Assembly: GCA_000004985.1 (NCBI GenBank)
Contig: GG739501.1
Reading direction: 5' to 3' (one strand)
Source: Naegleria gruberi
Taxonomy: Eukaryota
Length of the DNA stretch: 1,207 bases
Positions 1 to 1,207 of the stretch are shown here, in pieces. A model generated the notes under the pieces. The model saw nothing but the letters and a program-made list of their open reading frames with translations, was not told where the DNA came from and did not search any database. The translations under genes and the position numbers were made by a program. Numbering within the stretch: position 1 is the first letter of the stretch; each line of letters opens with the position of its first letter.

Positions 1-199
1 ATATTACTTTAAAGTTCGTGTGTTTAAGACTGTGTTATAGTCATGATGAATATCAATGATACTGAACTTTCGCATTCTTCCCAACCATAACATGTTAGTT
101 ACTTGGTGCTGATTCTAGGACTTAAACGAATAAACAACTCTCTAGTAATCATTATAACAACACAATAACCGCTAACAAACTCAATAGAAAATATAACAA

Positions 200-838
200 A
201 TGTCCAATAAGAAGCAAAGACAATTTAGCAAGCGTTTATTTAATAGTAAGGTAATGGATTTTTTAGAAGCAGCTGCTGTTGTTGAGGAGAGGGAGAAGAA
301 TGAAGCTGTTCACAAAGTACAACAGGAGCCAACTGTAGAAGAACCAAGGTTGAAAGGATTGAGAAGGTGGTTGTTGAAGAAAGGAAGGAAGAAACTCTTG
401 AAGCTTGTTGAAACTGTTTCCGAATCAGATGTTTCCAAAGAGAACAAAGAGAAGAGTGAAGATAACATAGTGGTTGCTGTTGTTTCTGAAGAGAAGGAAG
501 GAATTTCTTCCGCACAAGTTATTAAGCAAGATTATGCTGAAGAAATCCCATTATTTGTCGGTTCTTTAGATATTATGATGCATTTTATTGCGCAAGCCTT
601 CTCATCATTCCAAAAGAATATGATGAAGGAGATGAGAGAAGAAATGCAAAAGAATATAAAGGAGATGAAAGAAGAAATGCAAGAGCTAAAGAAAGATATG
701 AAAAAGGAAATCAAGGATGTTAAGAAAGACATAAATGACTTGAAAAAGGAGGTCAAGGATGTTAAGAAAGATGTGAGTGAGATAAAGAGGGATGTTAGGA
801 CTGTTAGAAAGATATTGATGAATTACAGAAAGATATGA
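200..838 (+). CDS. Hypothetical Lys/Glu/Met-rich coiled-coil repeat protein (212 aa). Basic N-terminal segment, central hydrophobic patch, C-terminal heptad/hendecad repeats. The C-terminus is probably truncated by a frameshift.
   Basis: This is the longest ORF in the window and has no internal stops. The ATG at 200 is the first in-frame ATG after the in-frame TAA at 194-196, and the next in-frame ATG is at 254. Codon choice is varied and position 3 looks coding-like from 200 to about 800. The translated C-terminal half has hydrophobic residues (M/I/V/L) spaced 3,4,4,3,4..., which is a coiled-coil signature. There is no Shine-Dalgarno motif upstream, consistent with a eukaryotic gene. The stop at 836-838 is suspect because coding-like repeats continue downstream in other frames. 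Confidence 0.55.
   Translation: MSNKKQRQFSKRLFNSKVMDFLEAAAVVEEREKNEAVHKVQQEPTVEEPRLKGLRRWLLKKGRKKLLKLVETVSESDVSKENKEKSEDNIVVAVVSEEKEGISSAQVIKQDYAEEIPLFVGSLDIMMHFIAQAFSSFQKNMMKEMREEMQKNIKEMKEEMQELKKDMKKEIKDVKKDINDLKKEVKDVKKDVSEIKRDVRTVRKILMNYRKI
626..691 (+). repeat. Two tandem 33-bp units encoding 11-aa units KEMREEMQKNI / KEMKEEMQELK. A third diverged copy lies at 879-911 in a different frame.
   Basis: Direct read: aaggagatgagagaagaaatgcaaaagaatata (626-658) followed by aaggagatgaaagaagaaatgcaagagctaaag (659-691). The core 'ggagatgaaagaagaaatg' recurs exactly at 881-899. Confidence 0.8.
711..796 (+). repeat. Two tandem 42-bp units encoding 14-aa units (two heptads each).
   Basis: The exact 19-nt string tcaaggatgttaagaaaga occurs at 711-729 and 753-771, an offset of 42. 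Flanking bases are diverged but alignable. The string agaaagatatgaa also recurs near 689-701, 827-839 and 857-869. Confidence 0.75.
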
Positions 839-885
839 AAGAAATGAATGAATTTAAGAAAGATATGAATGATTTAAGAAGGAGA
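808..885 (+). pseudogene. Out-of-frame continuation of the coiled-coil coding repeat in frame 1 (KDIDELQKDMKEMNEFKKDMNDLRRR), bounded by TAG 805-807 and TGA 886-888.
   Basis: The translation has the same K/D/E/M heptad-type motif as the upstream CDS (compare KKDINDLKKEV with KKDMNDL). It overlaps the last 10 codons of ORF 200..838, so it cannot be a separate exon. Deleting 1 bp in the a-run around 806-811 would fuse it in frame as ...RDVRTVRK-DIDELQKDMKEM.... Confidence 0.5.
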
Positions 886-986
886 TGAAAGAAGAAATGG
901 ATGGATTAAAGCAAGAATTGACTAATGTTGTTACTGGTTTGAATGAATTTAACAATGAGATGAGATTGGAGAAGTTAAATCTGAAC
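873..986 (+). pseudogene. Further continuation in frame 0 (FKKEMKEEMDGLKQELTNVVTGLNEFNNEMRLEKLNLN), bounded by TGA 870-872 and TGA 987-989.
   Basis: It contains a near-exact copy (879-911) of the 33-bp KEMKEEMQELK unit from 659-691, here read in frame 0. The two copies are 220 bp apart (220 mod 3 = 1), which proves a net frame slip between paralogous repeat units. The frame 1 to frame 0 switch must occur within 873-885. Confidence 0.5.
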
Positions 987-1036
987 TGAATAGGGTGAAC
1001 AAGAATGTTGACACCCTGTACCAACTCTTAGAGTAA
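959..1036 (+). pseudogene. Final continuation back in frame 2 (DEIGEVKSELNRVNKNVDTLYQLLE*), terminating at TAA 1034-1036. This is probably the ancestral C-terminus and stop.
   Basis: The coding-like, coiled-coil-like translation ends in a non-repetitive tail (VDTLYQLLE) and is followed by AT-rich non-coding-looking sequence. It is the same frame as ORF 200..838. The frame 0 to frame 2 switch coincides with the gagat-gagat 5-bp tandem duplication at 957-966. Confidence 0.5.
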
Positions 1037-1181
1037 TTATTAAGAGAAAAATATAATATTGTCCCTTAAAGATATGTCAATTTTCATTCAGAAAGAGACA
1101 ATTACAAGAAAAGGAGATGACCTAATTATTGAAATTGTTTGCAAACTTTAACTACTCAGTGGCTAATTATCAACACCATCC

Positions 1182-1187
1182 AATAAA
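1182..1187 (+). promoter_or_regulatory. Candidate poly(A) signal hexamer AATAAA in the 3' flank.
   Basis: An exact AATAAA lies about 145 nt downstream of the putative ancestral TAA (1034-1036) in AT-rich non-coding sequence. It is only meaningful if the locus is eukaryotic and transcribed, and the hexamer is common in AT-rich DNA. Confidence 0.2.
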
Positions 1188-1207
1188 AACATATTGCTGA
1201 TATGTAT

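Follow-up and report, generated by a model that had tools for sequence, protein, structure and literature searches.

A perfect 5-nt tandem duplication, GAGAT-GAGAT, lies at the third of three frame switches in a coiled-coil gene of Naegleria gruberi. We read it, with a probability of about 0.7, as an old slippage microduplication in a lineage-specific orphan gene that is decaying, or else evolving fast under weak constraint at best. The window, by which we mean the whole stretch analysed, is a complete, small, unplaced N. gruberi contig of 1,207 nt with 33% G+C and a strongly purine-rich coding strand (A 41%, G 25%, C 9%). The doubled tract recurs in the one relative that we found, an environmental metagenome contig (L001) that is itself broken. 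The annotated gene model NAEGRDRAFT_55017 (212 aa) covers just the cut-off head of a coiled-coil gene that is longer than annotated and frame-broken in its 3' third. Gene decay here is an ordinary process, with no new mechanism; the case shows repeat-rich orphan genes decaying by slippage and matters little beyond annotation.

A coiled-coil gene read in three frames

The annotated open reading frame (Table 1) is the gene's head, shortened by the first frame change. With frames given as position modulo 3, the gene starts in frame 2 at the ATG at 200, passes to frame 1 at about 808 and to frame 0 at about 873, and returns to frame 2 at 959/965. The 3' half of the window is built of 30-33-nt tandem units encoding a K/E/D-rich coiled coil, and the first middle segment belongs to a 30-nt tandem repeat at 807-873. 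Repairing the junctions yields a protein of about 277 residues, in which a short hydrophobic segment precedes a long K/E/D-rich heptad coiled coil. Pfam returned compositional coiled-coil matches only: DUF1664, at 35.9 bits, exceeded its cut-off of 34.6, and the others fell below theirs.

Table 1. Features of the gene in the window (frames as position modulo 3).
Feature	Positions	Strand	Sequence	Basis or remark
Annotated ORF, 212 aa (NAEGRDRAFT_55017 / XP_002667992.1)	200-838	+		Longest ORF; identical to the database entry 'predicted protein [Naegleria gruberi]'
Middle segment 1, frame 1	808-870	+	KDIDELQKDMKEMNEFKKDMND	Three-frame translation
Second frame change	866-872	+	Window aatgatttaag; relative aatgaatttaag	One A missing, private to the window
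Middle segment 2, frame 0	873-958	+	FKKEMKEEMDGLKQELTNVVTGLNEFNNE	ORF list, three-frame translation
Perfect period-5 tract	955-966	+	ATGAGATGAGAT	12 nt, 2.4 copies; putative 5-nt slippage duplication
Sole interval allowing the switch from frame 0 to frame 2	959-986	+		Three-frame translation, ORF list
Stranded C-terminal tail with TAA	965-1036	+	IGEVKSELNRVNKNVDTLYQLLE	Same frame as the gene's start codon

The first frame change is a shift of -1 near 807-812, where the window reads agaaagAtattg and the relative agaaagGtattg. At the second, the relative reads aatgaAtttaag around position 870, and restoring the missing A in the window gives NEFKKDMNEFKKEMKEEM, with the tandem NEFKKDM-NEFKKEM. 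The loss of that A may be genuine, or the low-coverage contig may contain a read error here.

A GAGAT duplication at the third frame switch

The first-pass annotation had placed a doubled gagat at the third frame switch, and its coordinates and sequence (957-966, GAGATGAGAT) are correct. Three-frame translation likewise bears out its codons and its arithmetic, by which a gain of 5 nt equals a shift of -1 and carries frame 0 into frame 2. The boundaries of the two copies are ambiguous by 2 nt because of the AT microhomology. In frame 0 the codons read ...NEFNNEMRLEKLNLN and end at TGA 987-989 (ORF 885-989); in frame 2 they read DEIGEVKSELNRVNKNVDTLYQLLE and end at TAA 1034-1036. The switch is confined between a frame-2 stop, TGA 956-958, and the frame-0 stop at 987-989, and the duplicated tract forms the 5' edge of this 28-nt interval, between 'NEFNNE' and the tail, which agrees with the location claimed for it. 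The frame-2 stop at 956-958 is created by the GAGAT duplication itself. In the present sequence the last 23 codons are out of frame, and MRLEKLNLN followed by a stop stands in their place.

Perfect 5-nt tandem duplications occur at four loci in the window (447, 955, 981 and 1050), compared with 1.9 expected from dinucleotide-preserving shuffles of the window (P = 0.13), and they are therefore common in such purine-rich composition. Among the window's period-5 tracts, that at 955-966 alone reaches at least 12 nt. A tract of at least 12 nt would overlap a given 28-nt interval by chance in about 1% of cases, and one of at least 10 nt in about 7%; the co-location of tract and switch is thus moderately more than chance would give.

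These figures bear on whether the repeat could be coincidental, with a different lesion in 959-986 having caused the switch, either the loss of 1 nt from TTGGGA (giving NEMRLGEV) or losses from GAGATGAGAGATATTGG (giving NEMRDIGEV). We regard this as unlikely. The 7% figure leaves room for it, as does the arrival of roughly two 5-nt repeats per window by chance, and the window's other two shifts look like 1-nt losses in short runs. Against it stands the 1% figure for the 12-nt tract, and either alternative makes the perfect tandem repeat an accident, whereas the repeat would be perfect because it arose by duplication of GAGAT if the ancestor was single-copy.

A second perfect 5-nt tandem repeat, CTGAACTGAA, lies at 981-990, 15 nt 3' of the GAGAT tract. 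It includes the frame-0 stop TGA 987-989, reads SELN in the tail frame and is unchanged in the relative; it is probably a chance repeat.

One relative carries the same tract

A search of the repaired 277-aa protein against 5.8 billion protein clusters matched only the window's own ORF and one further protein (P0002), encoded on L001. This is a 1129-nt ENA metagenome contig from a short-read assembly (project PRJEB11402); a literature search for the project accession gave no match. An exhaustive HMMER search of the 212-aa ORF against 1.84 billion representatives contributed nothing beyond the N-terminal ORF of L001 and generic coiled-coil repeat proteins, and the best distant matches proved on reading to be unrelated K/E/D/V repeat proteins. 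Over window positions 1-1037 the alignment with L001 has 10 indels and, among 819 aligned columns, 31 substitutions, an identity of 96.2%. Two in-frame indels of 33 nt (11 codons) lie at window 292-324 and 626-658, the latter being exactly one unit of a 33-nt tandem repeat.

At the GAGAT site L001 reads AATGAGATGAGAGATTGG, that is, the double GAGAT with an extra GA (also given as GAGATGAGAGAT), and the counterpart of the tract lies at its positions 935-948. This bears on the possibility of a sequencing or assembly artefact, in which the doubled GAGAT would be absent from the organism. The window is a 1.2-kb unplaced contig and its frame problems cluster in the last third, as an artefact might have it. 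The same duplicated tract, however, stands in a contig obtained independently, in a different project and with a different assembler, and the duplication is therefore not a read error of the window; we hold the artefact to be extremely improbable. To our knowledge, an exact 5-nt duplication is not a typical base-calling error.

Since the window and L001 have the duplication in common, it is older than their split (dS about 0.065). The extra GA in L001 is a second slip of the tract, by a dinucleotide and in one lineage. The first-pass annotation had expected an allele with a single gagat to represent the ancestral state among relatives; none was found in the protein searches, in the JGI metagenomes (searched with the protein and with a gapped DNA pattern across the site), in the GTDB genomes, in IMG/VR or by exact-product look-ups, all of which yielded no relative other than L001, and L001 instead has the duplication plus GA. 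We therefore infer the single-copy ancestral state.

Similarity between the two contigs stops abruptly 1 nt past the TAA at 1034-1036 (window 1034-1037, L001 1020-1023). Beyond it the 3' flanks share nothing (window 1038-1207, L001 1024-1129), and the 5' flank is common to both, including the end of an upstream gene.

Heptad register favours removal of one GAGAT

With the three junctions repaired, we followed the hydrophobic a/d positions (i mod 7 = 2/6) through the protein. Removing 5 nt, which joins NEFNNE to IGEVKSEL, leaves the heptad register unbroken from mid-protein to the last residue, across all three repaired junctions; the removal of one GAGAT thus gives a continuous ORF, NEFNNEIGEVKSEL...LLE and stop. 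By contrast, the +1-nt repair (NEMRLGEV), one of the two forms of the different-lesion alternative and the one that the window's other two shifts would suggest, shifts the register by two residues, and a -2-nt repair also breaks it. The other form fares better: a +4-nt repair (NEMRDIGEV, equal to L001 plus AT) keeps the register too, and, given L001, deriving both lineages by deletion from an ancestor GAGATGAGAGATATTGG takes as many events as starting from a single-GAGAT ancestor. The latter takes two slippage steps, the common GAGAT duplication and then the gain of GA in L001.

The claim that the repeat is a slippage duplication and not a sequencing error is accordingly strengthened by the doubled tract in L001 and by the register kept when one copy is removed, and tempered by a single-copy ancestor that is a reconstruction and by the +4-nt repair, which serves the register equally.

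Both copies of the gene are broken

The window's copy is broken at three places and that of L001 at four or more. In the window's head one A is absent at 345/346, a private loss (L001 reads CCAAAGG), and a 129-nt deletion relative to L001 at window 403/404 restores the frame lost there (stretch 344-403). Because of the missing A, residues about 49-68 of NAEGRDRAFT_55017 (RLKGLRRWLLKKGRKKLLKL) are probably an out-of-frame reading of KVERIEKVVVEERKEETLEA, which is of use in correcting the model. KVERIEKVVVEERKEETLEA is a motif (VEERKEET) that L001 repeats in frame at a later point. The 1-nt losses private to the window could also be errors of a contig with low coverage.

In L001 the frame breaks around its own position 318, and 2 nt are deleted at window 782-783, which leaves an in-frame TAA. 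Its further lesions are a CAA-to-TAG nonsense change at window 912-914, deletions of 10 nt (window 918-927) and 8 nt, and 7 extra bases at the GAGAT site relative to the single-copy state. The second frame shift is absent from L001, and a private 2-nt deletion neutralises the first; the three shifts of the window are therefore not of one common history.

Several disabling lesions are thus present in both copies, the mark of a pseudogene, and no intact homologue appeared among the 5.8 billion clusters or the 1.84 billion representatives, so that this orphan gene would be a unitary pseudogene. Between window and L001, dN/dS is 0.54 (28 substitutions, 8 synonymous and 20 non-synonymous), a value that does not differ significantly from the neutral value of 1 (P = 0.14). 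The hydrophobic core at 520-625 has one substitution, and the tail has one in 72 nt, synonymous in the tail frame, so that decay has not accelerated after the tract; there may be some constraint, or the loss may be very recent. The first-pass annotation had spoken of pseudogenisation or allelic truncation. The other lesions in both copies fit decay, but the duplication, being old and common to window and L001, is not a recent allelic change in this strain.

Added up, the non-triplet indels come to a multiple of three both in window 200-1036 and in L001 306-1022, and head and tail share a frame. Chance would give such sums in about 1/9 to 1/27 of cases, which is a little surprising if the gene simply decayed. 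Every shift in L001 has a private indel at most about 45 nt away that compensates for it (-2/-1, -8/-1 and -10/+7). We read no function into these sums because the out-of-frame patches hold stops. That the gene is alive with its frame actively maintained is very unlikely. A maintained frame could reflect selection for repeated compensatory frameshifts in a patch-tolerant repeat protein, against which the stop codons in the out-of-frame patches argue, or 773-807 could have become a 35-nt intron.

The shared frame of head and tail also invites a reading by programmed recoding, in which the ribosome would slip by -1 three times in succession to make the full-length protein from the present sequence: all three shifts are -1 and sum to zero in frame. 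By eye, no slippery heptamer of the form X XXY YYZ lies in the switch intervals (808-835, 873-885 and 959-986), the nearest being T TTA AGA at 873-879, and programmed -1 frameshifting was rejected on this ground. In comparison with L001 the second site is just a 1-nt deletion, and the indels of L001 displace every one of the sites. An Rfam search gave no RNA-family match. Recoding has next to no probability on this evidence.

An improbable alternative: a functional gene with a short intron

If the gene were functional, the double GAGAT would be its present, fixed state, the first shift a tiny GT-AG intron (773-807) and the second a read error. The native protein would then end ...NEFNNEMRLEKLNLN at TGA 987-989, and the old tail would be 3' UTR. 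Several observations agree with this. The sole relative also has the double GAGAT, and the second shift, which the window owes to a single base missing from an AA run, does not occur in it. The putative intron reads GTGAGT...TAG in the window and GTGAGT...AAG in L001 (777-809), so that it has GT...AG ends in both; taking it out, 35 nt in the window and 33 nt in L001, puts both sequences back in frame, and 2 of its 35 nt are substituted relative to L001, with one indel. Splicing together with the restored A gives one ORF from ATG 200 to TGA 987.

The segment resembles the very short spliceosomal introns of protists in its boundaries and in that both sequences regain the frame without it, although its lengths in them differ. 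For comparison, the average N. gruberi intron is 203 bp, and a minimum intron length of 30 nt was used for read mapping in Naegleria fowleri (PMC8296547). Unlike such introns, 773-807 looks like a coding repeat in heptad phase and shows no compositional contrast to the exons: it reads VSEIKRDVRTVR, keeps the heptad register and is a member of the repeat family. With a purine content that matches the exons, it lacks non-coding character, and splicing it out breaks the register. The 3' end fits a functional gene poorly as well. After NEMR the endings differ, LEKLNLN and stop in the window and DWRS and stop in L001, and homology to L001 ends right after the frame-2 TAA, not after TGA 987. L001 is in any case broken by the TAA, the TAG and the 10-nt deletion. 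The first-pass annotation had allowed that frame 0 would be the native reading if all relatives carried the double gagat and were free of the other shifts; L001 does have the double GAGAT, but its upstream part is itself broken, with the TAG and the 10-nt deletion. We consider a functional gene improbable, to about the same degree as a different lesion at the switch.

Other candidate introns were rejected. A 56-nt intron for the first shift (773-828) has its 3' part in phase with the 30-nt coding repeat at 807-873, and for the third shift the sole GT...AG pairs in the right length class (927-964, 930-964, 937-959 and 937-971) have poor 5' sites and fail in L001. The interval of the second shift contains no GT anywhere.

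A proposed route and its likenesses

On the preferred reading, an old slippage microduplication, replication slippage between the two AT dinucleotides of AT-GAG-AT would have doubled 5 nt in the common ancestor with L001, giving ATGAGATGAGAT (an allele with the single copy would read AATGAGATTGG); both this ancestor and the slippage mechanism are deduced from the two sequences. The duplication would have thrown the final 23 codons out of frame, and further indels in the gene's repeats would have followed it or been already under way.

The lesion has the features of a slippage microduplication frameshift: a perfect head-to-tail copy of 5 nt, 2 nt of AT microhomology, a length that is not a multiple of three, a stop (TGA 956-958) made in the downstream frame together with a new short C-terminus, a repeat-rich neighbourhood and a further GA step in L001. 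It differs in being common to two sequences about 4% diverged, hence an old lesion, and in that its single-copy allele is reconstructed. The gene as a whole resembles orphan coiled-coil repeat proteins that evolve by gain and loss of units, in its 30-33-nt tandem units, in the in-frame 33-nt and 129-nt indels between window and L001, and in its purely compositional matches to coiled-coil Pfam families and unrelated K/E/D/V proteins. It departs from them in having several non-triplet indels, and stops, in both copies.

Flanking sequence

The end of the upstream ORF lies on the same strand at window 2-40 (...YYFKVRVFKTVL and stop) and at L001 2-118. Its stop is TAG in the window, where L001 has TGG, and the L001 ORF is two codons longer (WS and stop). 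Between this ORF and the ATG, about 132 nt of the window (within 56-193) are absent from L001, as gaps of 3 nt and 129 nt; this is an intergenic or 5'-UTR indel that lacks GT-AG boundaries. The window's 3' end (1178-1192) has an A-rich match of 16 nt, with 15 bases identical and E about 0.01, to L001 42-57, just upstream of the counterpart of window base 1. The match hints weakly that the contig is arranged in tandem (or circularly), or is due to chance.
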